Of a stretch of 64,000 bases of DNA, positions 1-51,140 are shown piece after piece; position 1 is the stretch's first letter, and each line of letters begins with the position of its first letter. The stretch comes from a virus, in the IMG/VR virus record IMGVR_UViG_3300039412_000320; one strand, given 5' to 3'. The translations under genes and the position numbers were made by a program. The notes under the pieces are model-generated. The model made no database searches. It was not told the origin of the DNA and saw nothing but the letters and a program-made list of their open reading frames with translations.

Positions 1-483
1 GAGGTAAGGAAGGCAGCCAAAAACCAAGGAGAAAAATTCTATTCTTTCCCTCGTCCTTGTTCGGAGGGACACACGTCAAAACGGTTTGTAAGAAATACAG
101 AATGTTACCAATGTCACATTGAACAGTCTCATGCACGACGGGCTATCCGAGCAAGAACACAACGAGAATACAAAATGTATCATTCAGCTAAAGGACGAGC
201 AAGAGAGGGAGGACTAGAGTTTGGAATCACCATGGAAGATATTAAGAAAGCGTGGCCAAAAGACAATAAGTGCCCAATTTTAGGAATTGAATTAGAGTCC
301 AATAAAACTGGAATGGGGCCTCAACGTCAATCCCCATCACTTGATAGGATTGACCCTAAAGGAGGATATGTGGTTGGCAACATCGCTGTTATATCCTACA
401 AAGCTAATTGCATAAAACAAAATGAAACTAATCCCGAAATTTTTGAATCAATGGCTAGGTGGTTACGTTTTAATAAAAAGTAG
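1..483 (+). CDS. HNH-family homing endonuclease, 5'-partial (frame is open to the window start)
   Basis: In-frame with no stop from nt 1. Zn-finger CSEGH..CYQCH, then SPSLDRIDPKGGYVVGNIAVISYKAN motif shared with ORFs 12924-13310 and 63122-63874. Confidence 0.55.
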   Translation, partial: EVRKAAKNQGEKFYSFPRPCSEGHTSKRFVRNTECYQCHIEQSHARRAIRARTQREYKMYHSAKGRAREGGLEFGITMEDIKKAWPKDNKCPILGIELESNKTGMGPQRQSPSLDRIDPKGGYVVGNIAVISYKANCIKQNETNPEIFESMARWLRFNKK

Positions 484-494
484 AGGAGGAAAGT

Positions 495-2063
495 TTGTCA
501 TTTGATATACAAGCTGATAAAAATCAAATAGGCTCTGTGTATCTTCTTCACTTCTTAGGAGGTGGGATTTTTCATGGGTCTCAAGCAAGGGTTCGCCATT
601 ATTGCGGATTTGCTTTAGACCCCGAGGCCCGCATTGCTTTACATATGAATGGGACTTCACGGGCCAGACTTATGGAGGTTGCCCATCAGCGACATGTAGA
701 ATTTACCGTGGCTCGTATTTGGAGTGGAGTGACTCGTGAGTTCGAGCGCAAACTCAAGAACAGTGGTGGTCTGTCCCGCCACTGCCCAATTTGTAAGGCG
801 GAGGGTACCGACCGGGATTCTGTGCGTAAGAAACAGCAGGCTCCTGCGGTGCAGGAAGTACGGGTAGTGGAGGAGAACGAAGTAAAGCATATCGAGCTTA
901 TCCCAAGACCCAAGACCGCTGCGCTCACAAGAGACAACGCCCGTTGGAATGGCAAGCCGTTTTCCTTGGGAGCGGTGTCCTTGCTGGATGGGCACATTGA
1001 AGAAGCCCACAACTATCAGGAGTGCAAGGCGGGTGGATGGCACCACAGCCACATATTCAGCCAGCCGATTCTGGAGAGGGAACAGAGTGAATACGACTGG
1101 ACCAAAACCGACCCTCGTGCCCCCGAAGGTCCGCAAGGTGGTGGACCCGCCATCGGCTGGGGCGATACCCCATGGGGAGACTCCCATGGAAAGACCAGTG
1201 GAGATATCACCATATTCTGGGTAGAAGATGATGGGTCAATCGGTTGCAACTACCCACTTCCCGAAAATATCAAAGCGGCCATTAAGAAGCAGATTCAGGT
1301 CATCAGGTGGAGAAGGGCCGCTGAGGAGGATACACTTGCCAAGCTCGTATGGCAGTTCCGAGAGGAACAAGAGGATTGGTATGAGTGGTTAGAGGACAAA
1401 TCCTGTTTCCGTGAACAGTGCCTCTGTTTGGCGGACCTGTTAGCGAAGTTTCTGCGGGAACATGGTTTCCCTGATGCCCATCGGGCGGGTGGGTATTATG
1501 GAGAAGGACCGGAGAAGGGTGAGTATTTACAAGTAGGAAGGCATGGACTACATTGGTGGGTAGAGACGCAGGATAAAATCATCGACATCACCTGCGACCA
1601 ATTCCACCCCGGAGAAGAAGATGATTGGCGAGTGGTAATCACCGACCTTAACGACCCGGAGTATCAACGAAAGGGCACCGGCTCGGCGTTGGTCCCCAAG
1701 ACCGCTGAGGAGATTCCCGAGATTCTCTATCACGTGACTTTTAAGAGCCGGGTTCCTAAGATACTTCAAGAGGGACTGGTTCCCCAAAAGGAGCCGAACT
1801 TCCCCTTTGAGGAGAACCGGGGTTTAGTATTTCTGACGGCGATTGAGGGAGTGGATTATTGGAAAAACCTTCTCGCCGAGTTTATACGGGGCAAGGATGA
1901 TGAGTTGGTTACTCTTCGCATCAAGACTGAGGGGATGCGTTTGGCAAAGGACCCCTTGGGAATGGGAGAAACTGGTGTTCTTTCATATTCAACCCACCTT
2001 GTTCCCCCCAAGAATATCACAGTGCTACCAGAGCCAAGAAAGATTGCCTCCGTAGAACAATAG
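495..2063 (+). CDS. Multidomain protein: N-terminal GIY-YIG-like nuclease domain, CPICKAE zinc ribbon, C-terminal KptA/Tpt1-like LYH(V)T domain
   Basis: GSVYLL..HYCGFALDPEARIALHMNG..FERKLKN resembles GIY-YIG motifs. ILYHVTFKS..LVFLTAIEG..LVTLRIKT aligns to KptA FLYHGTAS..YVHLSADEA..VILTVKA. SD aggagg upstream. Confidence 0.5.
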   Translation: MSFDIQADKNQIGSVYLLHFLGGGIFHGSQARVRHYCGFALDPEARIALHMNGTSRARLMEVAHQRHVEFTVARIWSGVTREFERKLKNSGGLSRHCPICKAEGTDRDSVRKKQQAPAVQEVRVVEENEVKHIELIPRPKTAALTRDNARWNGKPFSLGAVSLLDGHIEEAHNYQECKAGGWHHSHIFSQPILEREQSEYDWTKTDPRAPEGPQGGGPAIGWGDTPWGDSHGKTSGDITIFWVEDDGSIGCNYPLPENIKAAIKKQIQVIRWRRAAEEDTLAKLVWQFREEQEDWYEWLEDKSCFREQCLCLADLLAKFLREHGFPDAHRAGGYYGEGPEKGEYLQVGRHGLHWWVETQDKIIDITCDQFHPGEEDDWRVVITDLNDPEYQRKGTGSALVPKTAEEIPEILYHVTFKSRVPKILQEGLVPQKEPNFPFEENRGLVFLTAIEGVDYWKNLLAEFIRGKDDELVTLRIKTEGMRLAKDPLGMGETGVLSYSTHLVPPKNITVLPEPRKIASVEQ

Positions 2064-2075
2064 GAAGACAAGAAT

Positions 2076-3116
2076 GTGGTAGCCCATATAGGAAGCTACC
2101 GTATCGTTGTAGATGACCCCGGAGACGCTAAATATATTACGGCATGGACGGAGGACAACAAATGTGTTGGCAAACTATCTACCAAACGACAGAGCGACAG
2201 TGGACCCCTGAACGACTATCTCGGGATTGCACTGGTGGAAGTGAAACCACGGCATCGGGGATACGGACTGGGCAAGGCGATGTACTTTGCCCTGATGCAG
2301 TTCATGAATCCGAAATGGAAGGGAATCAAGAGCTACCTCCCGGAGAGATACAATAAGAAGCGGGTTCCCAACATCTGGCGTAGACTGCAAGGCTACAAAC
2401 TTCCCGGAGAAGAAGACTGGATGGTTGCCGACCGGGATAAGGTTGCCAAGATAGCGTCAGGTCAGGACTCCCCGGACTGGGAAGAGGATGAGGATTCTCT
2501 CCTCACCAAGAAAGCTTGGCAGGATGAGCGCTTCTCCTATTGGGGATTGCAGTTCGCCGTTGACAAAGCGGAGGGGATCATTGCCGCCAATCCCCGGCCT
2601 ACGCAGAAGGCTCCCAAGGCATTTCTCAAAGCCTTTGTTGGCACCGTGGAAGATGACAAGGCTGAGGAAGAGGGTAGAATCAACCTCATGAATGTGGGCC
2701 TGAATAAGGAACACATGCAGACCGTTGATGCTGAGAAGCCCGGTATTGTTGCTCCCCTCATTTTCAAGCCGGACAAGACTCACTCCGAACCGCAGAAACA
2801 CTACATCCTCATTGACGGAAACCACCGGGCTAAGAAGCGCCTCCAAATGGGTCTGGACTTCATGGAAGTCTACCCCCTCACCCCCGAGGAAGCGTGGCAG
2901 TGCATGGCTCCGTACACCTTCCCCAACCTGTTGAAAATCTATGTTAACCCGACCAAAAAGGTGAGGAAGAAGGCGGAAGAGCAGCCCGCCAGACTCCTCT
3001 ATGTTGACGACATGCGCCGACCCACCGCTCCTGATGTTGATTGGGTCAGGAATTATGAAGAGTTCTTCCAGTACATGACGACGCATCCCATGCCCGAGGC
3101 TATTAGTTTTGGATAA
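2076..3116 (+). CDS. GNAT acetyltransferase - ParB/Srx-like nuclease domain fusion
   Basis: GNAT motif A VKPRHRGYGLGKAMYFAL. C-terminal ILIDGNHRAKKRLQMG resembles the ParB/sulfiredoxin DGxHR motif. Confidence 0.5.
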   Translation: MVAHIGSYRIVVDDPGDAKYITAWTEDNKCVGKLSTKRQSDSGPLNDYLGIALVEVKPRHRGYGLGKAMYFALMQFMNPKWKGIKSYLPERYNKKRVPNIWRRLQGYKLPGEEDWMVADRDKVAKIASGQDSPDWEEDEDSLLTKKAWQDERFSYWGLQFAVDKAEGIIAANPRPTQKAPKAFLKAFVGTVEDDKAEEEGRINLMNVGLNKEHMQTVDAEKPGIVAPLIFKPDKTHSEPQKHYILIDGNHRAKKRLQMGLDFMEVYPLTPEEAWQCMAPYTFPNLLKIYVNPTKKVRKKAEEQPARLLYVDDMRRPTAPDVDWVRNYEEFFQYMTTHPMPEAISFG

Positions 3117-3157
3117 TGGGGGTGATATCTTTTGACTTCGTATCTATTATATAGAGG

Positions 3158-3946
3158 ATGCGAATGACTATTAGAGGCAATTGCACCGTTTGTGGGGGGA
3201 ACTTCAAGCGTCGTTATGCTAAGAACTCCGTTCCTATTGTGAAGCTCTGTTCTAATAAGTGCAGAAGGGAGTGGCTACAAAAGGACAAGGTCAAAAAGGA
3301 GTGCATCGTTTGTAATAAGGTATTTTCCGTAAGCGCCTCAGTAGCTTATAGATATGTCACCTGTAGTATTGAATGCAAGCGTAAACATAAGGAGGGGGAT
3401 AAAAATGGAAACTGGCGAGGCGGTATAGCGGGAAATAGAAAGAAAGAGATTCGTTCCGGTAAGCTTCGTCGTTGGCGGAAAGCGGTCTTTGAAAGAGATG
3501 GACCCCACTGTGTCTTATGCGGGTCTAGTGATGGGTTAGAGGCTGACCGCATAAAGCCATGGTCTCTCTATCCAGAGTTTAGATATGAAGTAAGTAATGG
3601 ACGGATATTGTGCAAGATTTGTCATAACAAGCACACCAGAGAGTTAGCCGCCGAACGAAAGAGACTTGAGGCATTGGGGTATGTACGGATAACTTGTCCA
3701 CGAGAGTACGAGATTTTGGTTTGTCCCAGATGTGGGGTATCTTTCCTTAACAAGAGTGGTCAGAGTATCTATTGCGGAAAAAGGTGTCAAAGAGCGGAAG
3801 GACAGAAACGGTTAAGGGTAGCTAAAGCTGCCCGTGGGGAATGTAAGTGTTGTAGCAATCCAGTTGCCCCTAATTACAGTCGTTGTATTAGATGTCTCGA
3901 AAAGCAAAGAGTGGAGATGGCTGAATACAGAAAGCCTGATGTATGA
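3158..3946 (+). CDS. HNH endonuclease with multiple CxxC zinc fingers
   Basis: Many CxxC pairs. GPHCVLCGS..LEADRIKP..N..LCKICHNKH HNH core. Ends with ATGA overlap onto the next ORF. Confidence 0.55.
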   Translation: MRMTIRGNCTVCGGNFKRRYAKNSVPIVKLCSNKCRREWLQKDKVKKECIVCNKVFSVSASVAYRYVTCSIECKRKHKEGDKNGNWRGGIAGNRKKEIRSGKLRRWRKAVFERDGPHCVLCGSSDGLEADRIKPWSLYPEFRYEVSNGRILCKICHNKHTRELAAERKRLEALGYVRITCPREYEILVCPRCGVSFLNKSGQSIYCGKRCQRAEGQKRLRVAKAARGECKCCSNPVAPNYSRCIRCLEKQRVEMAEYRKPDV

Positions 3947-4656
3947 GAGATTTAACACAACCAGAGGCAGGCGGTCTTGGACTAACCGCTGCTCGTTATG
4001 TTATTGATAACAATCTTTCCATAAAGCGGTGGTTTGTTCATTCACCCAATATAATGGAGAAAAAAGAGTTAGAAAGCCTCTTATTTAACTACTCTCCTGA
4101 TGGCTACGACTCATCTTTGTACAAGACTCCCCACGTTAATGAAGAAGAGCAAGTCTACGGTGGGAAGATAAAGGGAGGCTTCCGGGTGAAGGCTGCCCGG
4201 CGCAGAGTAAATCCCCTTCTGCAACCGTCCGGTCCGTGGCCTGAACGCTCCGCCGATTGGTCTAGGCTTTCTCAAAATGGAGGTTGGATATCTCGGGACG
4301 GGCGACCTCTCCCCATGACTCACCCCTACGAACTCCACGGAGAGTGGGCGATGGCGGAAGACCTGTGCGGCATGGATGATTCAGAGGTGGAGGAGCAGGG
4401 GGGAGAGGATTACCTCGGATATGCCGAGAACCTTGCCATGGAGAATGGGCACCTCCGGGTTGACCGGGATGCTGGTCAGTTTTCCATACAGGCACGAAAT
4501 GTCACAAAGAGCCGCCGACTCATCACCGAGGCTCTGTTGATGACGCCATTCAAGGGAGAAGTGACCTTGGAGATGGGTCCACACGACCGCCCAAACTGGT
4601 CTAAAAGCCTCATTTCCACGCAGGATGCCGCAGATTGGCTAGAAAATATTCAATGA
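3943..4656 (+). CDS. hypothetical protein
   Basis: 237-aa ORF, start overlaps upstream stop (ATGA). No recognisable motif. Confidence 0.4.
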   Translation: MRDLTQPEAGGLGLTAARYVIDNNLSIKRWFVHSPNIMEKKELESLLFNYSPDGYDSSLYKTPHVNEEEQVYGGKIKGGFRVKAARRRVNPLLQPSGPWPERSADWSRLSQNGGWISRDGRPLPMTHPYELHGEWAMAEDLCGMDDSEVEEQGGEDYLGYAENLAMENGHLRVDRDAGQFSIQARNVTKSRRLITEALLMTPFKGEVTLEMGPHDRPNWSKSLISTQDAADWLENIQ

Positions 4657-4664
4657 CAGAATAA

Positions 4665-4701
4665 ATGAACTTTCTGAAGCACTTATAGGGGGAAAGTTCA
4701 T
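4665..4701 (+). promoter_or_regulatory. RBS/start-codon sequestering hairpin upstream of GIY-YIG gene
   Basis: Perfect 10-bp inverted repeat atgaactttc / gaaagttcat. The 3' arm contains the ATG at 4700 and follows the SD aggggga. Confidence 0.5.
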
Positions 4702-5407
4702 GTTTATCTATTTGATTGTAAATCATGAAACAGGAAAGTATTATGTCGGTCAACATACAGGTCATAATCTAAAGAAGTACCTTCAACAAAAATTTTCAGA
4801 TGCCAGACACGGACGAGGGGGAAATTCTCGTCTTTATAATTCCATGCGTAAACACCCCTTTCCTCATCTTTGGTCCATCCACGCCCTCCGTTCCGATATC
4901 CAAGCTAAAGCCGAGCTTGATGAGACCGAGCGGGACTTCATCAAGTTCCTTCGTGCTCAAGACCCTGAGTATGGCTACAATCTTTGTCGTGGAGGGGAGG
5001 GGTTTACCGGACTGCATTCTTCTCAAACTTGTGCTAAAATGAGTGAAGGGGTTAAACGAGCTTGGGCTAACCCCGAAAAAAGAGCCAAGCAATCGGCAAA
5101 TCTCAAAGCTGACTGGGCTAAACCTGAGTCTTTTTCTAATCGGGTTCAAGCGATTAGGGATTCATGGGCGGACCCTTATTCTCGTTCTAATCGTATGAAG
5201 GCTTTTGAAAATCTTGATTTTCACAGTAAAATGAGCACGGTTAATAAGAAAACATGGTCTGACCCAGAGAGAAGGAAAAAACAAGCAGCACTTCAAAGAG
5301 AGCGATGGACAAACCCCGAATACCGTGCCAAAATGAGTAATCTAGCTAAAAATCAAAGCCGAGGTACGGGACAGAAGTTTGTTGAAGCACTACCACTAGA
5401 CTCTTAA
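4700..5407 (+). CDS. GIY-YIG homing endonuclease with NUMOD3-like repeats
   Basis: MFIYLIVNHETGKYYVGQHTG (GIY..YVG), conserved R/E/N downstream. Repeated W(A/S/T)NPE..R.K motifs (NUMOD3-like). Paralogue of 38479-39327. Confidence 0.75.
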   Translation: MFIYLIVNHETGKYYVGQHTGHNLKKYLQQKFSDARHGRGGNSRLYNSMRKHPFPHLWSIHALRSDIQAKAELDETERDFIKFLRAQDPEYGYNLCRGGEGFTGLHSSQTCAKMSEGVKRAWANPEKRAKQSANLKADWAKPESFSNRVQAIRDSWADPYSRSNRMKAFENLDFHSKMSTVNKKTWSDPERRKKQAALQRERWTNPEYRAKMSNLAKNQSRGTGQKFVEALPLDS

Positions 5408-5423: not shown

Positions 5424-6848
5424 ATGGAAGAGCTTATCTACAAGACGGCGGGAGTTTGGGATAACCTTGACCGGGGATTCCTTGAGAAGATACACAACCA
5501 TGCCCCCGGAGTGGTTGTGGGTCATCTCAGTACTTTACTTAGGAATCAACGACTTAGGGAAATATATGAGAAAGTACTTGAAACCCCCATCAAGACCTTC
5601 AATAAACCGGAAGAGGTGGAGTTGGAGGGTGGTTCCCCCTTAAAGTGGCAAGGTGGATACGGGGTTTCCCACGGTGGTTCGATGATATTTATCAACCCCG
5701 CCATCAGCACCACCAACATTGTCAAAACTCTGTTTGAGGAAGGCGCTCACGCTATTTGGGCAGCGGAGGGGCGACCATCTAAACCGTTTGACCCCGCTCA
5801 TCCCCCCACCGAGAAAGAATATCTCTCTGACCCCGAAGAGCTTTTTGCCAAGCGTATGGCAGACCGTGCTTTCGCTATAGCTACGGGAGGGATAAAGACT
5901 GCCGCTTGGGCAGAGGCAACCGACTTCTCTTCCGACCCCCAGTGGCACGACGTGTTCTACGGAAATCCCTCGCCAGAGCGCATAAAGGCCCTTGCCAGCT
6001 TCCTTCGCTCCGACCCCAACCGCTTCATTACCCTTTATCACGGTACCGCCTCTGATTTGCCAGTGATGGAGGAGGGGTTGCTTCCGACCAGTCCCAGCAG
6101 GGCTAAATCGTATCAATCCAGTCCCGGTTACGTGTATCTCTCCGTATATCCGGGGAACGCCAAGAACTTTGGAGAACTGGCTTACCCCGGAGAGGATATC
6201 ACTGTCTACGCTGTCAATGTCACCGCCCGGCGATTACTGCCGGATACTGACCAGCTTGCCAATCAGCGGTCAGTGGGTAAGGAAGTGGGGAACAGCCTCG
6301 CTGAAAGCTTGGCAATCGGACATGGGGCACGAGTAAAGGGAGCAGTAGGTCCGATGCAGCTTTACAAGGCTGCCGCTAAAAAGTTGCGACTCCCCCCCGA
6401 CATCATAGACGGTACACGAAGCTTTCTGTGGGCTATCGTGAATGACCGGGTGATTTTTTCCTTGGAGATTGAACCCCACGTTATCTGGTTTAAACGAGTT
6501 GGACTTTCCGATTCCGGCCCGGCGTTCGACCGTATCCCCCGAGGGAGAATCTGGGTTCAATCGGCCCGTGATGAGGTCGTAATTTTTACCGAGGCAGGAA
6601 GTGGTGGTATCACGGGGCAGGCGGATTTCACCTTCGCCCCGGAGCATGTTGTAAAGGCTATGTTGCAGACCTTCCCTCAGCTTCGAGACTTTAACATCGT
6701 TGACGATATCCCTTCAAATCTTGTGGTAACCTCCTCTGTACATAAAAGAGGGGGAAGTCTCGCATCTAAGACAGCCCACATTTTATTGGCCGGAATAGGA
6801 GAAGATGACCGTGCGTACCTGAAATGGGATAGCAAACAAGCTAAGTAG
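5424..6848 (+). CDS. Multidomain protein: KptA/Tpt1-like LYHGTAS domain plus the ~90-aa GPxFDRIPRG module (paralogue of parts of the 2025-aa protein)
   Basis: ITLYHGTASDLPVMEEGL..YVYLSVYPGNAKNFG..DITVYAVNV matches E. coli KptA FLYHGTASRFLDEIKKQGL..YVHLSADEATARKVG..VILTVKA. N-terminal LSTLLRNQ vs KptA LSFVLRHK. SGPAFDRIPRG..FAPEHVV..FPQLRDFNIVDD module. Confidence 0.55.
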   Translation: MEELIYKTAGVWDNLDRGFLEKIHNHAPGVVVGHLSTLLRNQRLREIYEKVLETPIKTFNKPEEVELEGGSPLKWQGGYGVSHGGSMIFINPAISTTNIVKTLFEEGAHAIWAAEGRPSKPFDPAHPPTEKEYLSDPEELFAKRMADRAFAIATGGIKTAAWAEATDFSSDPQWHDVFYGNPSPERIKALASFLRSDPNRFITLYHGTASDLPVMEEGLLPTSPSRAKSYQSSPGYVYLSVYPGNAKNFGELAYPGEDITVYAVNVTARRLLPDTDQLANQRSVGKEVGNSLAESLAIGHGARVKGAVGPMQLYKAAAKKLRLPPDIIDGTRSFLWAIVNDRVIFSLEIEPHVIWFKRVGLSDSGPAFDRIPRGRIWVQSARDEVVIFTEAGSGGITGQADFTFAPEHVVKAMLQTFPQLRDFNIVDDIPSNLVVTSSVHKRGGSLASKTAHILLAGIGEDDRAYLKWDSKQAK

Positions 6849-6856: not shown

Positions 6857-9800
6857 GTGACCCCGACGAGGATACGTCCGACCCCGAAAAGGTTACAGAC
6901 TATGCCTGATAATCTAACCATATACCCAGTTACTCCCGAGTGGGTTTCAAAGGCGAAGGTGTTCTTAGCCGAGAAGTGGAAAGAGCGTGCCCAAGAGTTA
7001 GGTAAATCCAACCCTACGGATATGTCGGGTGCCTGCAAATTTATCTCTCTGTTCGGAAAGACGATTTTCGGGCTTGACATTCAAGGAAACTGGGGGCATC
7101 AGTACAACATCACTCCAGATGGTAAGCCTCTCGACCTTGCTGAGGGGTTTTCGGGAGAGGTTAGTTATCTTCACGATAGTGAATTTTTCAATAACCCCAA
7201 GCATAGGGAATCAATGGCGTCTTGTATGCCGAGGGTGAGGAGATGGGCTGAGGAGTTTATCCAGAGGTATCCCTTATTGGATAAAACGGCGTCCACACAG
7301 ACAAGGTGGTCTCATCCCCTGTTGAATGGGCTTAAGGCGGAAACACGCAAGGCTCCTACCTTCGAGGACTTCAAGCATGACTTCTCCATAGACATTAAGC
7401 ATGGACTGTATTTCCATGTCACCGACAACCCCAACTTCACTATCGACCCGGCGAAGGGTCCTCGGGATATGTCCAGCATGGGAGGCGGGACACCTGTGCC
7501 GGGAAAGTTGATGGTTACTTCTCACTTGGAGAATTGGACGGATTACTACGAAAGCGACCGGGCGTATGTCGCCGTCATTGACATGTCGGAAGTGCCGAGG
7601 GAATCCTACCATCAGGTAAGCCGGGGATTCGGCAATGAGTTTTGGGTGGAGAACCCGCAGGCGGTTAAGGTAGCGGCGGTCATGCCAGTTAAAGAGGCTA
7701 TCAAGCTGGACCGCACATATCAGAACGTTCTGGACCTTCACTCTGATGAAGACCTGTTGGAGTTCTATAACCAGTTCCACGCCCCAGCAGAACCCGAGTG
7801 GAAGCCGCCCAAGGAGCAGGGTAAACTTCCCTTCCGGGGTAAGGGCATTCCCGTAGTCGCTTATGAGCCTTGCGATTTTGAGTTACTGTGGGCAACTTGG
7901 CATAACAAAGTGCTGTTGACCGATGACATGGGTCTCTGGCATGTTAAATGGTTTCAAGAACTCAATCAGCATTCTCAACGGCATGACCCCATTCCTTCAT
8001 GGGGACCGGAGTTTGATAAAGTTCCTCGGGGAAGGGCGGAAGTCAATAAGAAGAAGAAGCGAGTCCGGCTGTACACCGATGCCGCACCCAAGGGGTCAAG
8101 AGCAGGTGAATCCATTACAGGAGAGGTTGACTTTGACTTTACCCCCGAGGAAGTAGTAGCCAAGATAAAGCAGAAGTATCCCTCACTCCGGGACTTTGAG
8201 TTTGTAGATGAGGTTGCTCCTCGGATAATGGGCAAATGGGCAGCCGATGAGTTTGAATACCCTCAGATTGCCTACCATGTCAGCCGTCGCCGTAGCCGGA
8301 ACTCCATTCTAAAAAATGGATTGCAGATGTACCACAAGCAGCAGTATGAGGATGTGGAGCACGAGCCAGCGGTGTATTTGTTCGGTAGCCTCACTGATGC
8401 CGAGAACTGGGTAGGTGAGCAGCAGCCCTACACAGGACAAGCTTGTGACATCTGGGAAGTGAAAGTCCCACAAGGGGAAGGAACGTTTTGGCCGGACTTC
8501 GAGGTTCGGCACGAATACCCCACGGCGTGGAAGTATCTCTGGGATATTCCTCCACAAAATATCAAGCTCATCAAGACTATATCGCTCCCCAAGCAGGCGG
8601 CTCTACCCACTGGAAAAGCCATAGATGACCTCGGGATATCCGGTCAGCAGGGATGGTCATATGACGAGCCGTTCCCGGACCGGCATAATGATTTCTACGA
8701 GGACGACCAAGTTCAGAATCCCCACAATGAGCACCCCCTGACCGCCTCTCTATCCCCGGCCTACACCGAGGAAGTAAAGAAACTGGAATACGAGCACGAG
8801 CTTATCTCCTTGGCGGAGGAGATGGGGAACTTCGAGCGGGTGGTGTGGGAGCGCCAGCCGGTCCTCAAGACTCACATGTTGGACACCGTGGGCTTGGCAG
8901 GCTCCGCAAACGACTACCCACATCTACGGGCCGTCCATGTGGGTGACCCCGACTATTGGTTCAGTCGGCTGACAGAAGATTACAGCCGTGACTCCAAGGC
9001 GTGGGTGGTGGAGATATATCCCACCGAAGATGACTATCTGTGTGATGATGTGCAGTATGCCATGGACCCTAGCGGTGGAGACAAAGCATATAGCGCCATT
9101 CTCATCACTCCTCGCACTCAGTTGGTGGAGGGTAAGGATTTCCGGTACGTGAAGGAATTGACGGAGGAAGACCTCCCCGAAGTCTATGATGAAGATGACG
9201 GGTTTGGTTTCAAGGACGCTGCTATTAAAAAGACAGTCATCATGTGGGTTCGTCATGAGGGAAAGCTTTACACCACCGTACAGGTTGGGGGCAAGAGCCA
9301 TGCCCAGTGGTTGGAAGAACTGAGCCTACCGTTCTCCGGTCCTTCCTACGACCGAATAGAACGAGGGGTAGCGATTGTAGACCGAGGGCACAGAGTCGTT
9401 CACCTCGTCAAGAACGCCGGGGGATACACGCCCAATGACGTAGTGGAATACATCAAGAATCGGTACAATCTGAAGGAGTTTATATTCGTTGATACGGAAA
9501 GCTCCGACACGGGTATTGTAGCCTTCAAAAAAGTTGCCAGTGACGATGCTTACTACGATGCGGCAGAGGCGTTCTTTGACCGGGAGAGCGTGGTAGCCGT
9601 AGAAGTAATCACCGAATACATGCAGCACGTCCGCCAGAAGAGGTATCGTCAGCAGTGGAATGTCGTGCCCGCCGCCCGGCTCATCAAAATTTGGGAAGAC
9701 TACATGAAGACGGGGTTTGTCCGGGACTCAGCGGGTCTTAATCAGATAGCGGAAACCGTCATTGACAACTGCTTTAAGATTTACGTCAATTCCATCCTCT

Positions 9801-12800
9801 GCGGTCATAGTGCGATGGGGCCAGAAGAGTATGCTTTGGAGATGCTGGAAAGGGAAGGTATATCCAAGAAATTCCCGGAGGACTACTTTAAGAGGGCACC
9901 AGACTACTTTGATACCCCGGAAGGCGGCTGGAGGATAAGTGACCAAGCTGAGGGGCGTTTGATGAATCTCGTGCAAGGGGTGTACCTTGCCAAGAGTGAT
10001 GAAGACAAGTTACAAGCGCTTGATAAGGTCTTGCAGTTTTCCCACCCCCGCAGCGACCTGTCAAGCTGGCTGGTGCAAGGCGGAAGGACCACCTTGAATC
10101 GGCTCTTCACCGGCATGAATGAATATGAGCGGTGGGAGCAATACGGCGGCGTGGAGGAGGCAAAAGAGTTAAACAAGGAGTTCAATAAGGGTAGGAATGC
10201 CCCCCTTATTCCCAAGGAGGCGTGGAGCACGGAGCCGGGCGGAGAGCCGCTCAAGCCCGAGACTCAATCCACTATCGCTGAGATGGTAGCGGATATACGC
10301 AAGATATACCCTGAGTGCCAGCGCATCTCCTTGGCAGGCTCCGCCGCTCGTGACGAACTCAAACCCAAGTCTGACATTGATGTGGTCATTGATTTCCCCA
10401 AGGGCACTCCCGCATGGGATATGGTGGAAAGAGACCAACCACTTTGGGACAAGTACCAACAGGTGGAAGGTCGGATGGTGGACTTCATCATCCATGTAAA
10501 AGGTGGACCGCACGCCGGGCAGTATGATTACCGGGAGGAGTTGGGTCTCCCCAATCCCATGAAAACTTTGTGGGAGGCTACAACCAAGACCGCTTCCTTC
10601 TCCGTTGAAGGTGAGGGATGGCTGACCCCCGATGGTCGTTTCCTCCCCAACGCTTTCGGTGAAAAGCACGAAGACAGCGCCCTGCGCCTCGGGTTTTTAA
10701 CCAAGGAAGAAGCCAAGAAGATAAAGAACGACACCCAGCGGAAAGAGCAGGTCATTGCCAAGGGGAACATTCGGGTTGGATTCTCTAACACCGGCAACAC
10801 CATCTTCTTTGAGTCAAAGACTCTTGATGCCGATACCAAGAACCTGATAGGTATGGGCTTGGAGAATCTGCCGAGAGGCGTTCGTAAGGTCTCAGTTTCA
10901 ACCCAAGATGAGATGTATTACCTGTGGACTTTGCAAGAAGCTCAAGAGGTTTTTTGGGGTAATGAGCCGATGCCCCAAAACATGGCCTACCTGAGCGTGG
11001 CTTCCAAGACCGCCGCTCTCCCCGGCCTCGGACTCCTCCAGCCTGGACACGGGGATGATTCCAGTGCGTTTGACCCCGGCTATTACATGACCGAGGGGTG
11101 CGGTATATTTGCTGTGGATGCTGATTACCGGTACTGGGGGAAGGACGTGATTCAACCCCTGATGACCGCTAAGACTGCCAAGACCGCCTCGGAATGGGGA
11201 GGTTTCTGTCCCCGTTGTGGTTCGGACCAGACAGCGTGGGCGATGCACTCTGCGACCACTGACACCTATTTCTGCATGGATTGCAAGGGCAGCACCGACA
11301 TTGAACGGGACATGCACCCCGACTTACGGTCGGCTATGAAGATAGCTGGATTGGTAGGATACCCGTGGGCGATATGGGAGGGCAAGGTTCTCCTTAGCCC
11401 GAGGGGAATGGCACACACCGACTGGTTCTCTCGTATGGGAATCCCCGACCGAGGACCGGAGTTTGACCGCATCCCAAGGGGCAACTTTTACATTGACAAA
11501 GCTAAGAGGCAAATCTACGTCTGGACGGATGCCGAGACTTATGACTACTCTAAGAACCCCTCAGAAGAGAGCCTAGACGATACGGTGGTTTTTGGTCCAT
11601 GGGGAGGAAGGAGATTCGACCTTGAATTTACTCCTCCCGAGGTGATAGAAGCCATCAAGCGAAAGTACCCCTACACCGAAGCTTATGAGGTGGTTGACTG
11701 GATGCCGCCCGGCTCCGTTCACAAGTGGAGTTCCGGCGAGTGGTGGAGGCGTTGGCGCAAGACCTATCTTATCTCCAAGGGTACCATCCTCTACCACGGC
11801 ACAACGGAAGATTTCCCGGCAATGGACATCCAAACCCCGGCATGGTTTAGCACCTCTGAATCTGTTGCCGAGTACTTTAAGGCGTGGCATGGCGGCGAGG
11901 AGGGCGAGCAACGCATTCTCAAATTCCAAGTCACCAAGCCTATCCGTCTCCCAAGGATAGATGGTTCGGAAGACCTTGAAAGACTCGCTGATATGTTCAA
12001 CTTCCCCAGCCCGCTAAGTGGGCATGATTATGTGGAAGACCTTGCCCAAGTCCTCCCCGGCTGGATTATCCCCCACAACTACCCGGACGGCGATGATATC
12101 CTGCTCGTCAGTGACCGGGACATCATACCCATCAATGAGCCGGAAGAGGAAGAAGAGGAAATCTCGCAGGAGGGTTTGCCCCCCGGAGCTTGGAGGAACA
12201 ACTCTGGTCTCCCCGGCTATTGGACTCGTGAGGGTACCACCACCATTTACCACATGACACCCGAGGAGATAGCGGAGCGGGAACAGAGGTTGCAGAAGCG
12301 GTCAGCGGCGGAGCCGGTCAAGGCTGAGGAGGCGACGTGGAGCCGTCCGCTCTACCACGGCACCTCGGCTTACCGGGCGAAGAAAATAAAGGCCCAGAAG
12401 AGCTTCTACGGTGAGACCGAGGGCTACAACGAGATGGGGGTGGGGGTCTATACCCACCCGTCCATGAACCGCACCAGCCCATGGGCAGCGGGCCGGGCGC
12501 AGGGAGCTTTCATGGAGCTTCATTTCACCCGTCCTCTAAAGTTGGCAGTGAAGAATCCGCAAGGCGAGTGGGTATCCTCCATGGGAGGAGAAAGTCATCG
12601 GTTTATTAGCAAGGCACCGACGCAGAGAGAACTCGTTGACGCCGGATACGATGGTATCTACGATAAGCACGGCACTACGCAGGTTCCCCACCAAGTGCTT
12701 CTGTTCAATCAGCCGGTGCTGGGGTCGGGCGGGGCACACAAACTCAATCAACTGATTGACTGGGACAAGGTCCGCATTATCAACTTCAACGAGTCCCAGC

Positions 12801-12934
12801 ATGGTTACCTCAAGGGGTTGGAGAACACCGAAGAAGCACCCCATTACCGGGGAGCTTCTCAAATGACCGCCGCCGATGACCGGCCCATGCCCAAGGAGTT
12901 TGTCACCACCAAGAACCTCAAGACTAACATTTAG
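6857..12934 (+). CDS. Giant polyvalent protein (2025 aa): transglutaminase-like Cys protease, 3 KptA/Tpt1-like domains, 3 copies of the GPxFDRIPRG module, MNT nucleotidyltransferase, zinc ribbon
   Basis: Uninterrupted 6 kb ORF with GTG start after SD agagggggg. GACKFISLF..GHQYNITPDGKPLD (C-H-D TGase-like). GSAARDELKPKSDIDVVIDFP (GS..DxD MNT). CPRCGSD..FCMDCKG. IAYHVS, ILYHGTT and PLYHGTS domains. Confidence 0.7.
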   Translation: MTPTRIRPTPKRLQTMPDNLTIYPVTPEWVSKAKVFLAEKWKERAQELGKSNPTDMSGACKFISLFGKTIFGLDIQGNWGHQYNITPDGKPLDLAEGFSGEVSYLHDSEFFNNPKHRESMASCMPRVRRWAEEFIQRYPLLDKTASTQTRWSHPLLNGLKAETRKAPTFEDFKHDFSIDIKHGLYFHVTDNPNFTIDPAKGPRDMSSMGGGTPVPGKLMVTSHLENWTDYYESDRAYVAVIDMSEVPRESYHQVSRGFGNEFWVENPQAVKVAAVMPVKEAIKLDRTYQNVLDLHSDEDLLEFYNQFHAPAEPEWKPPKEQGKLPFRGKGIPVVAYEPCDFELLWATWHNKVLLTDDMGLWHVKWFQELNQHSQRHDPIPSWGPEFDKVPRGRAEVNKKKKRVRLYTDAAPKGSRAGESITGEVDFDFTPEEVVAKIKQKYPSLRDFEFVDEVAPRIMGKWAADEFEYPQIAYHVSRRRSRNSILKNGLQMYHKQQYEDVEHEPAVYLFGSLTDAENWVGEQQPYTGQACDIWEVKVPQGEGTFWPDFEVRHEYPTAWKYLWDIPPQNIKLIKTISLPKQAALPTGKAIDDLGISGQQGWSYDEPFPDRHNDFYEDDQVQNPHNEHPLTASLSPAYTEEVKKLEYEHELISLAEEMGNFERVVWERQPVLKTHMLDTVGLAGSANDYPHLRAVHVGDPDYWFSRLTEDYSRDSKAWVVEIYPTEDDYLCDDVQYAMDPSGGDKAYSAILITPRTQLVEGKDFRYVKELTEEDLPEVYDEDDGFGFKDAAIKKTVIMWVRHEGKLYTTVQVGGKSHAQWLEELSLPFSGPSYDRIERGVAIVDRGHRVVHLVKNAGGYTPNDVVEYIKNRYNLKEFIFVDTESSDTGIVAFKKVASDDAYYDAAEAFFDRESVVAVEVITEYMQHVRQKRYRQQWNVVPAARLIKIWEDYMKTGFVRDSAGLNQIAETVIDNCFKIYVNSILCGHSAMGPEEYALEMLEREGISKKFPEDYFKRAPDYFDTPEGGWRISDQAEGRLMNLVQGVYLAKSDEDKLQALDKVLQFSHPRSDLSSWLVQGGRTTLNRLFTGMNEYERWEQYGGVEEAKELNKEFNKGRNAPLIPKEAWSTEPGGEPLKPETQSTIAEMVADIRKIYPECQRISLAGSAARDELKPKSDIDVVIDFPKGTPAWDMVERDQPLWDKYQQVEGRMVDFIIHVKGGPHAGQYDYREELGLPNPMKTLWEATTKTASFSVEGEGWLTPDGRFLPNAFGEKHEDSALRLGFLTKEEAKKIKNDTQRKEQVIAKGNIRVGFSNTGNTIFFESKTLDADTKNLIGMGLENLPRGVRKVSVSTQDEMYYLWTLQEAQEVFWGNEPMPQNMAYLSVASKTAALPGLGLLQPGHGDDSSAFDPGYYMTEGCGIFAVDADYRYWGKDVIQPLMTAKTAKTASEWGGFCPRCGSDQTAWAMHSATTDTYFCMDCKGSTDIERDMHPDLRSAMKIAGLVGYPWAIWEGKVLLSPRGMAHTDWFSRMGIPDRGPEFDRIPRGNFYIDKAKRQIYVWTDAETYDYSKNPSEESLDDTVVFGPWGGRRFDLEFTPPEVIEAIKRKYPYTEAYEVVDWMPPGSVHKWSSGEWWRRWRKTYLISKGTILYHGTTEDFPAMDIQTPAWFSTSESVAEYFKAWHGGEEGEQRILKFQVTKPIRLPRIDGSEDLERLADMFNFPSPLSGHDYVEDLAQVLPGWIIPHNYPDGDDILLVSDRDIIPINEPEEEEEEISQEGLPPGAWRNNSGLPGYWTREGTTTIYHMTPEEIAEREQRLQKRSAAEPVKAEEATWSRPLYHGTSAYRAKKIKAQKSFYGETEGYNEMGVGVYTHPSMNRTSPWAAGRAQGAFMELHFTRPLKLAVKNPQGEWVSSMGGESHRFISKAPTQRELVDAGYDGIYDKHGTTQVPHQVLLFNQPVLGSGGAHKLNQLIDWDKVRIINFNESQHGYLKGLENTEEAPHYRGASQMTAADDRPMPKEFVTTKNLKTNI

Positions 12935-13310
12935 TTTTTAGTGCGTTTACCATCCTGTCAAAATCAACATCAGGAAAAGCACCTCGTGCCCTATTATAAA
13001 TCCAACAAGTAAGGCGAGTATTTTCTGGTGAATAATCTCCTGTTTGATTTCTGCGGTCTAAGGAGGGACTAAATGAGTTTGTTCTACTTCCTTTACCATT
13101 ACCAACATTTAACTCAAGGGGTAGGTTAGTTACTTCACATACTCCCCGTTCTAATTTTTTTCTAATCCAGTCCTGAGTTATAAGACACTGCACTTTATCC
13201 TTTATTGCTCTTTTCCGAGCATTGTTGAGCATGAAAGCCGCCCGGCCCTTAGTTGTGGTGTAGTATTTTGAAAACTTACGCCAATTTTGTTCTCGTTCCT
13301 TAGTTGTCAT
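12924..13310 (-). CDS. HNH-family (SxDRxxxxGxY type) homing endonuclease-like
   Basis: SPSLDRRNQTGDYSPENTRLTCWIYNRA parallels the 1-483 and 63122-63874 motif. Confidence 0.5.
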   Translation of the reverse strand: MTTKEREQNWRKFSKYYTTTKGRAAFMLNNARKRAIKDKVQCLITQDWIRKKLERGVCEVTNLPLELNVGNGKGSRTNSFSPSLDRRNQTGDYSPENTRLTCWIYNRARGAFPDVDFDRMVNALKTKC

Positions 13311-15638: not shown

Positions 15639-16331
15639 TTACTGGTTGAGGATTGAGGATTGAGGGCTAGGATGTCTGCCGCAGGTGCAAGGCTTACCAT
15701 GATTGATGTTCCATCGTTGGCAAGAAGCTTTGATAAGAACCCCATTCTTAGCATTCTTTTGACCATTCAATTTGCCGCCAACCTTGCCGCCACGAACATG
15801 AGCCTCATGATTCATCTTGGTTATTGCAGTTTTTCCTCCCCGACTACAACTTTCTTTTGTAACAATAGAAGCAAGGTGACCAGTCTCTACATTTTTTCTG
15901 CCTTGTATTCTACCAGTTATTTTTCCACCAATCTTTCCTCCTTTACTACAGCTTTCCTTGGTTGCAAGGAGATAGATACGACCGTTTTCTACACTTTTTC
16001 TACCGGCTTTTGCCATCTTTTTACGAATCTCCGAGGATGGATTACATAACCTATCTCCTCCGTCAGTCCCATTTCTTAGACACCCAGTTCCTTGGTCTAT
16101 TCGCCCATACATAGCTATTAAGAATTTCTCTCCATCCAATGCGTGGACTTCGTTTGGCCACTCCTGAGTTAAGATACAATCAGGATTAGTTGGAGGAGAA
16201 AAATATCTATTGCCTACTTTATGTTTTACAAATGCTCGTCTTCCGTGTCCTTTACCAACATAGTAGGGGCATCCCACCTGTCCACAAACTGGACATGGGT
16301 AGTCACGTAACCACATGTAAGTATAGAACAT
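15639..16331 (-). CDS. GIY-YIG-like homing endonuclease with GGK-repeat region; paralogue of 19855-20538
   Basis: FYTYMWL..PYYVGKGHGRRAF (GIY-YIG variant). Repeated GGK(I/V)GGK..G motifs. C-terminal RWNINHGKPCTCGRHP matches RWNVHRGKPCTCGKH of 19855-20538. Confidence 0.5.
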   Translation of the reverse strand: MFYTYMWLRDYPCPVCGQVGCPYYVGKGHGRRAFVKHKVGNRYFSPPTNPDCILTQEWPNEVHALDGEKFLIAMYGRIDQGTGCLRNGTDGGDRLCNPSSEIRKKMAKAGRKSVENGRIYLLATKESCSKGGKIGGKITGRIQGRKNVETGHLASIVTKESCSRGGKTAITKMNHEAHVRGGKVGGKLNGQKNAKNGVLIKASCQRWNINHGKPCTCGRHPSPQSSILNQ

Positions 16332-49024: not shown

Positions 49025-49099
49025 GGTGACTGTAACTCAGTGGCAGAGTGCCTGACTGTGAATCAGGATACGGGGGTTCGATTCCCCTCAGTCACCCCA
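49025..49099 (+). tRNA. tRNA-His(GTG) with encoded G-1
   Basis: g-gtgactg/cagtcac, cctga-ctGTGaa-tcagg, ttcgatt T-loop, CCA encoded. Confidence 0.7.
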
Positions 49100-49104
49100 A
49101 GTTT

Positions 49105-49176
49105 GGTGAGTGAACCCCACAGGGTACTCGGTCTGGTCCGAGGGGGCGGGGGCAGCCCACTTCGTCATTCACCCCA
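49105..49176 (+). other. Unclassified CCA-ending structured element (9-bp terminal stem, no T-loop)
   Basis: ggtgagtga...tcattcacc-cca. Internal ctcgg-tctggt-ccgag and G-rich hairpins. Not a canonical tRNA. Confidence 0.3.
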
Positions 49177-49182
49177 ATATAT

Positions 49183-49260
49183 GGTCCCGTAGCTCAGCCC
49201 GTATAGAGCAACTCCCTCCGAAGGAGAAGGTCGTCGGTTAAAATCCGACCGGGACTTCCA
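49183..49260 (+). tRNA. tRNA-Arg(CCG)
   Basis: ggtcccg/cgggact, anticodon loop ctCCGaa, T-loop ttaaaat (atypical). Confidence 0.5.
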
Positions 49261-49266
49261 GATTAG

Positions 49267-49342
49267 GCCCCTGTAGCTCAGTGGACAGAGCGCCCGGTTT
49301 CGACCCGGATGGTCGCAGGTCCGAATCCTGTCAGGGGTTCCA
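49267..49342 (+). tRNA. tRNA-Arg(TCG)
   Basis: gcccctg/caggggt, cccgg-ttTCGac-ccgga, gcagg-tccgaat-cctgt. Confidence 0.5.
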
Positions 49343-49381
49343 AGATTTGAAAACAGTAATTGGACTTCGTAGTCCTTTAGT

Positions 49382-49798
49382 ATGAGGTCTAAGAACTGTT
49401 ACAAATGTGGTAAGGAAAAAGAGCACCGGTCAGCACCATACTGCCTCGAATGCCAGCGAGGCTACAATAAGCAAAACTACGAGAGGAATAAGACCTCGTA
49501 TGTTGAAAAAGCGAAACGGAATGGTGCAAGGTATAGGAAAGAAGCCATAGAGTGGGTCTTACAGTATTTGATGACTCACCCCTGTATCGACTGTGGAGAA
49601 TCTGACCCGATAGTCCTTGAGTTTGACCATCGGGAAGGAGAAAAGAAATTAGCAGCCGTTTCAACTTTAATGACACAAATGAAGGCATCATTAAAGACGA
49701 TAAAGGCTGAGATAGTTAAGTGCGACGTGCGATGCGCCAACTGTCACCGTCGTAAAACAGCGAAAGAAAGAGGTTGGTACAAGATTGAGGCCCCGTAG
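49382..49798 (+). CDS. HNH homing endonuclease inside the tRNA array
   Basis: CIDCGE..EFDHREGEKK..CANCHRRK. Stop codon abuts the start of tRNA-Arg(ACG). Confidence 0.6.
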   Translation: MRSKNCYKCGKEKEHRSAPYCLECQRGYNKQNYERNKTSYVEKAKRNGARYRKEAIEWVLQYLMTHPCIDCGESDPIVLEFDHREGEKKLAAVSTLMTQMKASLKTIKAEIVKCDVRCANCHRRKTAKERGWYKIEAP

Positions 49799-49868
49799 CT
49801 CAGCCCGGACTAGAGCAGCGGTCTACGAAACCGAAGGTCAGTGGGTTCAAATCCCCTCGGGGCTTCCA
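49789..49868 (+). tRNA. tRNA-Arg(ACG)
   Basis: ggccccg/cggggct, gcggt-ctACGaa-accga. D-arm near-identical to Arg(CCG). Confidence 0.55.
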
Positions 49869-50015
49869 AGATTGAGACCACGTGACGCACCCAAAGGGAT
49901 GGCGAGTCTGATGGGTTCGGTGGTAAGCAGGGCACCAGTTCTTCGGAACAGGCGAGGTCCCCAGCTATGCACTTCCCGCCCCTGCGGAGGGCGGTTGTCA
50001 CTGGTCACTGTTTGT

Positions 50016-50089
50016 TGGGATGTCATCCAATGGTAAGATGCCCGGCTGTTACCCGGAGAATGCAGGTTCGAGTCCTGCCGTCCCAGCCA
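50016..50089 (+). tRNA. tRNA-Asn(GTT), short D region
   Basis: tgggatg/cgtccca, anticodon loop ctGTTac, gcagg-ttcgagt-cctgc. Confidence 0.45.
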
Positions 50090-50254
50090 GTTTGAGGTCG
50101 TATGAGCGAGTGTCGCTGGTGTGATGAGGGTCGCCCTTGGTTGGCAGGTTGTGAGGGCAAACAGCACCAGCCGTTGTATGGTTCAGGCGAGCACTCAGGG
50201 ACGATGTGTCATAACAACTCGTCTATATATCCGCCTGAGAAGGAGACAGTTTCT

Positions 50255-50329
50255 TCTGGAGTAGCTCAACGGTAGAGCGTTCGGCTGTTAACCGAATGGT
50301 TGGGGGTTCGATTCCCTCCTCCAGAGCCA
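50255..50329 (+). tRNA. tRNA-Asn(GTT)
   Basis: tctggag/ctccaga (U1-A72), ttcgg-ctGTTaa-ccgaa, ggggg-ttcgatt-ccctc. Confidence 0.65.
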
Positions 50330-50335
50330 AAATAT

Positions 50336-50415
50336 GGAGTCGTGACGCAGATGTGGTTAAGCGTAGCCGCCTTTTAAGCGGACGGTCGTGGGCACCCAAT
50401 CCACCGGCTCCACCA
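50336..50415 (+). tRNA. tRNA-Lys(TTT) candidate with non-canonical T-loop
   Basis: ggagtcg/cggctcc, gccgc-ctTTTaa-gcgga; T-loop cacccaa lacks TTC. Confidence 0.35.
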
Positions 50416-50421
50416 AGATGT

Positions 50422-50498
50422 GCCGCCGTAACTCAACTGGACAGAGTACTCGGCTCTTGCCCGAGGAGTTGGAGGTTCGAGTCCTCTCGGCGGTACCA
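50422..50498 (+). tRNA. tRNA-Lys(CTT) (G37)
   Basis: gccgccg/cggcggt, ctcgg-ctCTTgc-ccgag, ggagg-ttcgagt-cctct. Confidence 0.5.
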
Positions 50499-50503
50499 AA
50501 TTT

Positions 50504-50579
50504 GGGTCGGTAGCTTAACTGGCAGAGCAGGGGCCTCTTAAGCCCAAGGTTGAGGGTTCGATTCCCTCCCGACCCACCA
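50504..50579 (+). tRNA. tRNA-Lys(CTT)
   Basis: gggtcgg/ccgaccc, ggggc-ctCTTaa-gccca, gaggg-ttcgatt-ccctc. Confidence 0.6.
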
Positions 50580-50654
50580 AGATGCTCTTGAGAGCGTATT
50601 ATAGGACTTAAGGTGCTCTCAAGATAATGCCGAGAAGTTTGAAAGTTTGGTTTT

Positions 50655-50731
50655 GCCTCTTTAGCTGATGCGGTGCATAGCGCCCGCCTGAAGAGCGGGA
50701 GAACAGAGTTCGACTCTCTGGGGAGGCACCA
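50655..50731 (+). tRNA. tRNA-Phe(GAA)
   Basis: gcctctt/gggaggc, cccgc-ctGAAga-gcggg, cagag-ttcgact-ctctg. Confidence 0.65.
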
Positions 50732-50737
50732 AGTTAT

Positions 50738-50811
50738 AGCGGAGTAGAGCAGTCAGGTAGCTCGGTTGGCTCATAACCAACAGGCCGCTGGTTCAAATCC
50801 AGCCTCCGCAA
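50738..50811 (+). tRNA. tRNA with CAT anticodon #1 (Met/fMet/Ile2), A1-A72 mismatch, CCA not encoded
   Basis: gagc/gctc D-stem, gttgg-ctCATaa-ccaac, gctgg-ttcaaat-ccagc. Confidence 0.55.
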
Positions 50812-50866
50812 CCTTGATACGCTACAGCGTATTAGCAACAGATATGCGGTGTAGCGTATGGTTTGA

Positions 50867-50943: not shown

Positions 50944-50947
50944 TCTT

Positions 50948-51024: not shown

Positions 51025-51140
51025 AGCCGTACGTGAGTGCCCCTTAAAAGGCCATTGTTTGGGCGGCGTAATTGTCGGGTAACATACTCATGGTGTGGCG
51101 CAGCGCAACCATCATGGCTCCCAAACACCACGTACGTTCT

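Follow-up and report, generated by a model that had tools for sequence, protein, structure and literature searches.

The virus record IMGVR_UViG_3300039412_000320 raises a question about a short histidine motif that recurs in three of its genes: what are the protein segments built around it, and what do they do? We analyzed a 64,000-nt stretch of this record (the window), which appears to come from a phage with a very large genome. The three open reading frames (ORFs) at issue lie on the plus strand: ORF A (495-2063, 522 residues), ORF B (5424-6848, 474 residues), and ORF C (6857-12934, 2,025 residues). An initial annotation, made from the sequence alone, read the five motif-bearing segments as a single diverged and amplified family related to the tRNA-splicing enzyme Tpt1/KptA, with its catalytic Arg and His residues substituted. 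In our analysis, the segments are probably modules with the ADP-ribosyltransferase (ART) fold that bind nicotinamide adenine dinucleotide (NAD+), fall into three types, and would ADP-ribosylate host macromolecules. They are carried by polyvalent proteins of an uncultivated huge phage. Such proteins are very large modular effectors, for which the literature predicts packaging into virions and delivery together with the DNA (Iyer et al. 2017, PMC5512222).

The five motif-bearing segments

We searched the six-frame ORF fragments of the whole window (55,762 residues) for YH[GV][TS] and found five matches, all at positions that the initial annotation had given correctly. They are LYHVT in ORF A (residue 411, nt 1725), LYHGT in ORF B (residue 204, nt 6033), and three motifs in ORF C that we call C-1 (AYHVS, residue 472, nt 8270), C-2 (LYHGT, residue 1645, nt 11789), and C-3 (LYHGT, residue 1832, nt 12350). 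Because all five are confined to ORFs A, B, and C, which make up about 5% of the residues searched, their clustering is not due to chance. The surrounding segments are not copies of one family, since a hidden Markov model (HMM) of the ORF B family misses the other four. Pairwise BLAST comparisons among them were also mostly insignificant. The idea of a single Tpt1-like family is wrong: at least three sequence families can be distinguished, and ART-PolyVal is what the last two ORF C copies resemble. On sequence grounds, we sort the segments into a B-type (ORF B), an A-type (ORF A and ORF C residues ~460-580), and an ART-PolyVal-like type (ORF C near residues ~1640 and ~1830).

The initial annotation had proposed that HMMs of PF01885 (PTS_2-RNA) or of ART-fold families should recognize the segments. 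None did so at curated thresholds, and this failed test meant that more sensitive evidence was needed. All sub-threshold Pfam matches of the isolated segments were to ART families (PTS_2-RNA, Arr-ms, and, twice, ART-PolyVal), and the ART assignment was rescued by structure prediction and profile-profile comparison. The predicted structures of the A and B modules have the split β-sheet of the ART fold, and the alignments contain the residues through which ARTs contact NAD: a strand-1 histidine, a strand-2 aromatic residue, and an acidic residue.

The B-type module spans 5886-6398 on the plus strand (ORF B residues 155-325), with its ART core at ~6021-6368. A profile search recovered more than 255 proteins containing it, mostly stand-alone proteins of 155-200 residues without Pfam annotation. 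Stand-alone members of ~160 residues consist of a two-helix extension followed by the ART core. One such member lies beside the DNA methylase genes of a bacterial genome, and another lies in a phage-like region. An AlphaFold2 model of the module, based on a 121-sequence alignment, had a predicted local distance difference test (pLDDT) score of 92.3. When this model was submitted to Foldseek, the nine best matches were all KptA/Tpt1 (best E 2.7e-4), with low template-modeling (TM) scores of ~0.35. In hhalign, the profile of the 121 homologs matched four Tpt1 sequences with 90% probability (E 1.4e-6) over 43 columns. These columns comprise strand 1, a helix, strand 2, and a second helix (LYHGT..GL..YV[YH]LS..A..G); the remainder of the domain did not align. 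The resemblance of ORF B to KptA is thus real in the first half of the NAD lobe, but to call it almost residue for residue is an overstatement: the second half fails to align by sequence, and there was no PF01885 match.

ORF B retains all 29 positions that are invariant or near-invariant among its 121 homologs, including H206, T208, R226, S229, Q231, S232, Y238, D274, D276, Q277, N280, R282, S295, and R303. Since every invariant family residue is kept, the module is well preserved and shows no sign of degeneration. Within the family, H206 is invariant, 103 of the 121 sequences have the strand-2 tyrosine (Y238), and 118-120 of them have D274 and D276. We infer a putative active site composed of His206, Tyr238, and Asp274-Asp276. 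Three signatures mark the family: R-x-x-S-x-Q-S, which forms a conserved loop (Arg226-x-x-Ser-x-Gln-Ser); D-x-D-Q-L-x-N-x-R, a near-invariant stretch after strand 4; and G-x-G-A-R-V-K-G. The best Pfam match of the isolated ORF B segment was to Arr-ms at a sub-threshold E of 0.04. No counterpart of the module was found by tblastn in 50,697 GenBank phage records. A profile search of the PDB gave no match with a six-sequence alignment of the family. With the 121 sequences, its sole match was DUF305, which covers the N-terminal helices, is not an ART, and was rejected as spurious.

A-type modules occur twice. One forms the C-terminus of ORF A, a polyvalent-protein fragment (495-2063, plus strand), where it covers 1677-2060 (residues 395-522). 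The other is C-1, identified by a family-HMM match at 8219-8656 on the plus strand (ORF C residues 455-600). With an A-type HMM built without window sequences, C-1 scored E 1e-32, ORF A 9e-22, and the ORF B module 1.4e-3. A homolog common to the ORF A module and C-1 lies at residues 541-652 of the related protein P0137. Profile comparison by hhalign connected the A/C-1 profile to the B family with 59% probability over 85 columns. This link and the HMM score of the ORF B module indicate that the A-type and B-type are distinct but related families.

A profile of ORF A, C-1, and P0137 matched 369 representative clusters among 1.84 billion proteins. These relatives are stand-alone proteins of 100-150 residues as well as modules of proteins of up to 3,397 residues. 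When 114 members were compared with Pfam, four matched PTS_2-RNA (best E 1.3e-5), two PARP, one ART-PolyVal, and one Tox-ART-HYE1. ORF A itself scored 15.8-17.5 bits against PF01885 (E 0.015-0.0043; cut-off 26), and C-1 as an isolated segment had no Pfam match. An AlphaFold2 model of ORF A residues 395-522 had a pLDDT of 82.7. The family conserves Y-H-[VI]-[TS]: 113 of 114 members have the histidine, and 113 have a strand-2 aromatic residue, which is Tyr or Phe in 104 of them; an aspartate is found in 90. Its signature is Y-H-V-[TS]..N..S-I...G-L.P together with a C-terminal I-P-P-x-N-I, and C-1 has the family His, Tyr, and Asp positions. NCBIfam and PHROGs returned nothing for either A-type or B-type modules, except for one PHROG of unrelated function that matched one stand-alone A-type protein.

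The two remaining segments appear to be ART-PolyVal-like. C-2 (11774-12226, plus strand; ORF C residues ~1640-1790) was assigned with hhalign and jackhmmer profiles. It matched the ART-PolyVal profile with 90.5% probability in hhalign (E 1.3e-6, 83 columns), and scored 13 bits (E 0.18) against Pfam PF18760, below the 31.2-bit cut-off. C-3 (12338-12736, plus strand; residues ~1828-1960, with the sequence GYDGIYD) is probably of the same kind, but its assignment is weak and the least secure of the five. A lineage-specific jackhmmer ART-PolyVal profile detected ORF C (full-sequence E 6.8e-5) and no other window ORF. Neither C-2 nor C-3 had homologs among the related proteins that we retrieved, and the A, B, and C-1 segments did not match PF18760.

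Relation to Tpt1/KptA and other ARTs

Among ART families, the B- and A-types lie nearest to the NAD lobe of Tpt1/KptA, which is the top structural neighbor of both modeled modules. Both modules have the fold of that lobe and carry His-x-Thr in strand 1. In its first half, the B-type follows the Tpt1 pattern LYHGT..I..GL.P....YV[HY]LS..A..G, and the A-type ends in a motif, [IV]PP..I, that resembles Tpt1 by eye. In the sequence alignment, the B-type Arg226 lies within a 10-residue insertion at the site of the catalytic arginine of the Tpt1 NAD lobe.

The active sites differ, however. Tpt1 has the pattern His/His/hydrophobic, whereas in the modules the strand-2 histidine of Tpt1 (YVHLS) is replaced by Tyr or Phe and a conserved aspartate follows strand 4. 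Tpt1 is also a ~180-residue enzyme, while the modules are embedded in polyvalent proteins. A larger difference lies outside the NAD lobe. The modules lack the N-terminal winged-helix RNA lobe, and with it the Arg-His-Arg of the catalytic tetrad. The initial annotation had equated LSTLLRNQ, near residue 35 of ORF B, with LSFVLRHK of KptA and concluded that the catalytic residues were substituted. When ORF B residues 1-165 and three homologs were compared with the Tpt1 profile, the probability was 0.2% and this pairing was not recovered. This N-terminal module has no relation to the RNA lobe and is separately mobile. It occurs without the ART cassette in the related proteins P0003, P0133, and P0008; the resemblance of the two octapeptides is a matter of chance. 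From the profile score and these ART-free relatives, we conclude that the whole RNA lobe is absent rather than mutated. With RNA binding and three of the four catalytic residues missing, the modules are not Tpt1 enzymes. The 26-bit threshold of PF01885 was reached by none of them: ORF A fell below it, and neither ORF B nor any of the three ORF C segments gave a match. The view that these are parts of large multidomain proteins rather than a stand-alone tRNA-splicing enzyme is supported.

ARTs are encoded by more than 40% of jumbo phages (PMC9503650). In polyvalent proteins they are the commonest protein-modifying domain, with a His/Tyr/Asp active site and 1 to 12 copies per protein (PMC5512222). 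Features shared with these polyvalent ARTs (PF18760, of the Tox-ART-HYD2 clade) are giant phage proteins with several ARTs each, the His/Tyr/Asp pattern, and accompanying GNAT, Pol-beta nucleotidyltransferase, Nudix, and ParB domains. C-2 and C-3 resemble PF18760 directly. The B-type and A-type, by contrast, reach an hhalign probability of at most 19% against it, have signatures of their own, and are also widespread as stand-alone proteins of 100-200 residues.

The rifampin ADP-ribosyltransferase Arr (PF12120) is likewise a minimal ART of ~140 residues with a His/Tyr/Asp site, and Arr-ms is the best Pfam match of the B segment. By eye, against PDB sequences, its D-D-P-N-L-T-N-K-[RK] resembles the P-D-x-D-Q-L-x-N-K-R that follows strand 4 in the B-type. 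However, hhalign gave only 3% probability between the B profile and Arr, which is not significant; the substrate of Arr is a small-molecule antibiotic, and its genomic context differs. Alt, ModA, and ModB of T4, along with the anti-CRISPR AcrIF11, are also small phage-encoded ART-fold proteins that modify host targets, serving host take-over or countering host defense, and Alt is packaged in the virion (PMC5512222). The Alt/Mod proteins belong to the Arg/Ser/Glu clade, and we detected no sequence relationship between the window modules and T4 Alt, ModA, ModB, or AcrIF11.

A shuffled cluster of polyvalent genes

ORF B consists of the N-terminal module (residues 1-160), the B-type cassette, and a repeated module of ~110 residues. 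P0003 and P0133 are ~90% identical to ORF B over residues 1-161 and then run straight on into residues ~318-464, and both are missing the LYHGT module. Relative to these two proteins, the cassette is therefore an insertion. Conversely, P0004-P0007, P0009, P0010, and P0134 have only the LYHGT module in common with ORF B, and carry it beside bona fide ART-PolyVal, GNAT, or Nudix domains. Because homologs cover ORF B only piecewise, with or without the LYHGT module, we regard this module as a mobile cassette. In a 339-kb relative, the B-type cassette is found within the ORF C homolog (P0134, residues 760-916) and not in the ORF B homolog (P0003), which shows that cassettes are shuffled between neighboring genes.

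The repeated module (..GP.FDR.PRG...F.F.P..VV..I...) occurs four times on the plus strand, once in ORF B (6381-6773) and three times in ORF C (7880-8230, 9215-9517, and 11339-11722). A jackhmmer search connected the four window copies (E 1e-31 to 6e-62) and found the module in 10 related polyvalent proteins as well (overall E 1e-17 to 1e-62); Pfam has no match for it. An ART module adjoins three of the four copies, suggesting that the repeated module serves as a linker or adaptor.

ORF C begins with a GTG codon at 6857, 8 nt beyond the stop codon of ORF B (6846-6848) and in a different frame. It encodes a giant polyvalent protein with 40 homologs of 1,158-3,541 residues. Many of these homologs carry ART-PolyVal, Nudix, 2H/LigT, GNAT, ParB, SprT, RadC, HATPase, or other domains, and the contigs that hold several of them are 200-593 kb in size. 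Among the relatives, bona fide PF18760 domains occur in the same proteins as B-type and A-type modules. ORF C itself contains a Pol-beta-type nucleotidyltransferase motif at 10283-10426 on the plus strand (residues 1143-1190; Pfam NTP_transf_2, E 8.4e-6, above the cut-off, matched at residues 1148-1190). A further module, at 7316-7774 on the same strand (residues 154-306), is common to all 40 giant homologs (phmmer E 1e-34 to 1e-112); it had no match in Pfam, NCBIfam, or PHROGs, and tblastn found none in GenBank phages. By eye, parts of this module (YFHVTD..GPRDMSS..KLMVTS..RGFGNEFWV) have an ART-like series of H-x-T, x-T-S, and N-E-F. We considered it as a sixth ART and rejected it, as hhalign gave no signal against ART profiles.

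In one relative, P0133 (2,375 residues) unites the N-terminal and repeated modules of ORF B, without the ART cassette, with ORF C. In the same relative, tblastn located ORF A residues 273-522, ORF 2076-3116, and ORF 3943-4656 collinear and in frame within one gene of 2,667 codons (219-kb contig L006, locus 1-3838), which also has ART-PolyVal, GNAT, and cREC_REC domains. The window has this gene in pieces: between ORF A and ORF 2076-3116 lie a stop codon and a gap of 12 nt. This second fragment, on the plus strand, encodes a GNAT domain (residues 19-88; Acetyltransf_1, E 2.3e-5) and ends in the N-terminal half of cREC, a cyclic-phosphate-processing receiver domain (residues 307-344, nt 2994-3107). 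On the isolated fragment, cREC_REC scored 25.8 bits (E 1.8e-5) against a cut-off of 27. An HNH ORF (3158-3946) sits inside the cREC domain, and Rfam detected no group I intron around this insertion. Since the ORFs are collinear or fused in the relative, we consider those of the window to be pieces of a polyvalent cluster that is here split by HNH and GIY-YIG ORFs. Their proteins are typical of polyvalent proteins in being very large, combining several unrelated enzymatic domains, and having architectures that are shuffled among relatives. In one relative, the cluster adjoins a GP88-domain protein.

Several other features of the window deserve mention. Homing-endonuclease-like ORFs are scattered among the polyvalent genes at 175-483, 3158-3946, 4700-5407, 12924-13310 (minus strand), and 15639-16331 (minus strand). 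The HNH ORF at 3158-3946 and the GIY-YIG ORF at 4700-5407 have Pfam matches; the other three have none and were recognized by eye only. These endonucleases and small unannotated ORFs are the neighbors of the cluster within 16 kb. At the start of ORF A, residues 1-115 (nt 495-840; GSVYLLHF...GIFHGS...RIALHMNG) are 53% identical to an inner segment of the polyvalent protein P0144 (residues 1040-1139). This region resembles the core of a GIY-YIG-type nuclease by eye, has no Pfam match, and holds a sixth motif of the form [IL][FY]HG[ST] that is probably coincidental. The initial annotation had counted about 30 tRNAs in the genome, and we find 27 tRNA genes in the window. All are on the plus strand in two arrays (29133-30692 and 49026-55447) that include three copies of tRNA-Met, six of tRNA-Arg, and four of tRNA-Leu. 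A few predictions exceed the usual length, reaching as much as 93 nt. The ORF B-C region had no nucleotide match by blastn in the same 50,697 GenBank phage records.

What the modules may do

Most likely, NAD+ is bound by each module through His-x-Thr/Ser in strand 1 and the aromatic residue in strand 2, and a conserved aspartate would aid in passing ADP-ribose on to a macromolecule of the host in the early phase of infection. The several divergent modules probably differ in what they target. Several observations weigh against this reading. No segment reaches the curated Pfam threshold for any ART family, and the two new families are so far described by sequence and predicted structure. Fold models cover only the ORF B module and ORF A residues 395-522, and the catalytic aspartate is a candidate placed by alignment and the order of secondary structure elements. 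In ORF A, the residue aligned with the strand-2 aromatic position of the family is a valine, which could mean either that this copy is impaired or that the alignment is off by one residue. C-3 scored 14 bits against PF18760 (E 0.089, positions 9-115 of 140), below the 31.2-bit cut-off, and its hhalign probability was only 11%, though the match was collinear over 124 columns that include GYDGI. Finally, we identified no virion or morphogenesis genes beside the polyvalent cluster within the window.

Could the motifs recur merely by chance or through compositional bias, in segments that have no common fold? The insignificant BLAST comparisons and the failure of the B-family HMM to detect the other segments would be expected in that case, yet we find this idea highly improbable. 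All five motifs in 55,762 residues fall within ORFs A, B, and C, two independent high-confidence models are both ART folds, and profiles link the types to one another. For the A, B, and C-1 modules, chance is effectively refuted. It also seems improbable, if less starkly so, that the modules are catalytically dead and serve as NAD+- or ADP-ribose-binding or scaffold domains. Inactive ART-fold domains do exist, and two of them, PARP13 and RCD1, were among the fold-search matches; the valine of ORF A and the strong divergence of C-3 point in the same direction. Against this, ORF B has lost none of the invariant residues of its family, which counts more than 255 proteins, mostly stand-alone ones of 155-200 residues, and the His, Tyr, and Asp positions of the A-type family are preserved in C-1. 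That small stand-alone proteins conserve many polar residues so strictly speaks for an enzyme, and this makes a role limited to binding unlikely. Of the two functions suggested in the initial annotation, binding without canonical catalysis or a different ART-type reaction, the latter is the likeliest.

That reaction might still be directed at phosphates. Without the RNA lobe, a Tpt1-like module could move ADP-ribose from NAD+ to the terminal 2'-PO4 or 5'-PO4 of RNA or DNA. The phosphate would be removed or capped, and the ADP-ribose cyclic phosphate (ADPr>P) thereby released would be processed by neighboring cREC, Nudix, or 2H domains, so that the cluster would amount to a delivered kit for repairing or capping RNA or DNA ends. 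We think this unlikely, even though a number of observations favor it. Tpt1/KptA is the top structural neighbor of both models and also leads the profile matches over the domain's first half. In the alignment, the Arg226-x-x-Ser-x-Gln-Ser loop sits at the site of the Tpt1 NAD-lobe arginine, and R282, R303, and K305 are conserved. A cREC half-domain lies in the same cluster, cREC_REC is fused with ARTs in L006, and polyvalent homologs carry Nudix and 2H/LigT domains, all in a genome with at least 27 tRNA genes. In the literature, cREC is placed solely in RNA-repair and ADPr>P-processing contexts, and KptA, 2H, cREC, and Nudix cooperate in phage RNA repair (PMC9503650). On the other side, the N-terminal lobe that binds RNA and holds three of the four catalytic residues is absent, and a strand-2 tyrosine with a conserved aspartate is the configuration of target-modifying ARTs (PMC5512222). 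Moreover, Tpt1 tends to lead fold searches with minimal ART cores, and Nudix, cREC, and 2H accompany ordinary polyvalent ARTs too. A more elaborate version of the proposal strikes us as unlikely too: the B- and A-types would be Tpt1 relatives that consist of the NAD lobe only, still direct their chemistry at phosphates, and ADP-ribosylate RNA or DNA at 2'- or 5'-phosphate ends, with neighboring domains recognizing the substrate and cREC, Nudix, and 2H clearing the by-product. Such a virion-delivered toolkit for end repair or capping would shield tRNAs or the genome from endonuclease defenses of the host.

We therefore favor ART-fold modules that act on host macromolecules. Several ARTs in one phage polyvalent protein have been described before, and the architecture itself is not new. 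What is new is that the A-type and B-type are large families not covered by Pfam, NCBIfam, or PHROGs, the libraries tested here, and that among ART families they are structurally closest to the NAD lobe of Tpt1/KptA. Both families are compact and highly conserved and can be expressed easily, so they are good candidates for revealing new ADP-ribosylation targets in the conflict between phage and host. Possible targets include proteins, DNA bases, and the phosphate ends of nucleic acids. They may also help to clarify the relation between Tpt1, with its two lobes, and minimal ART cores.

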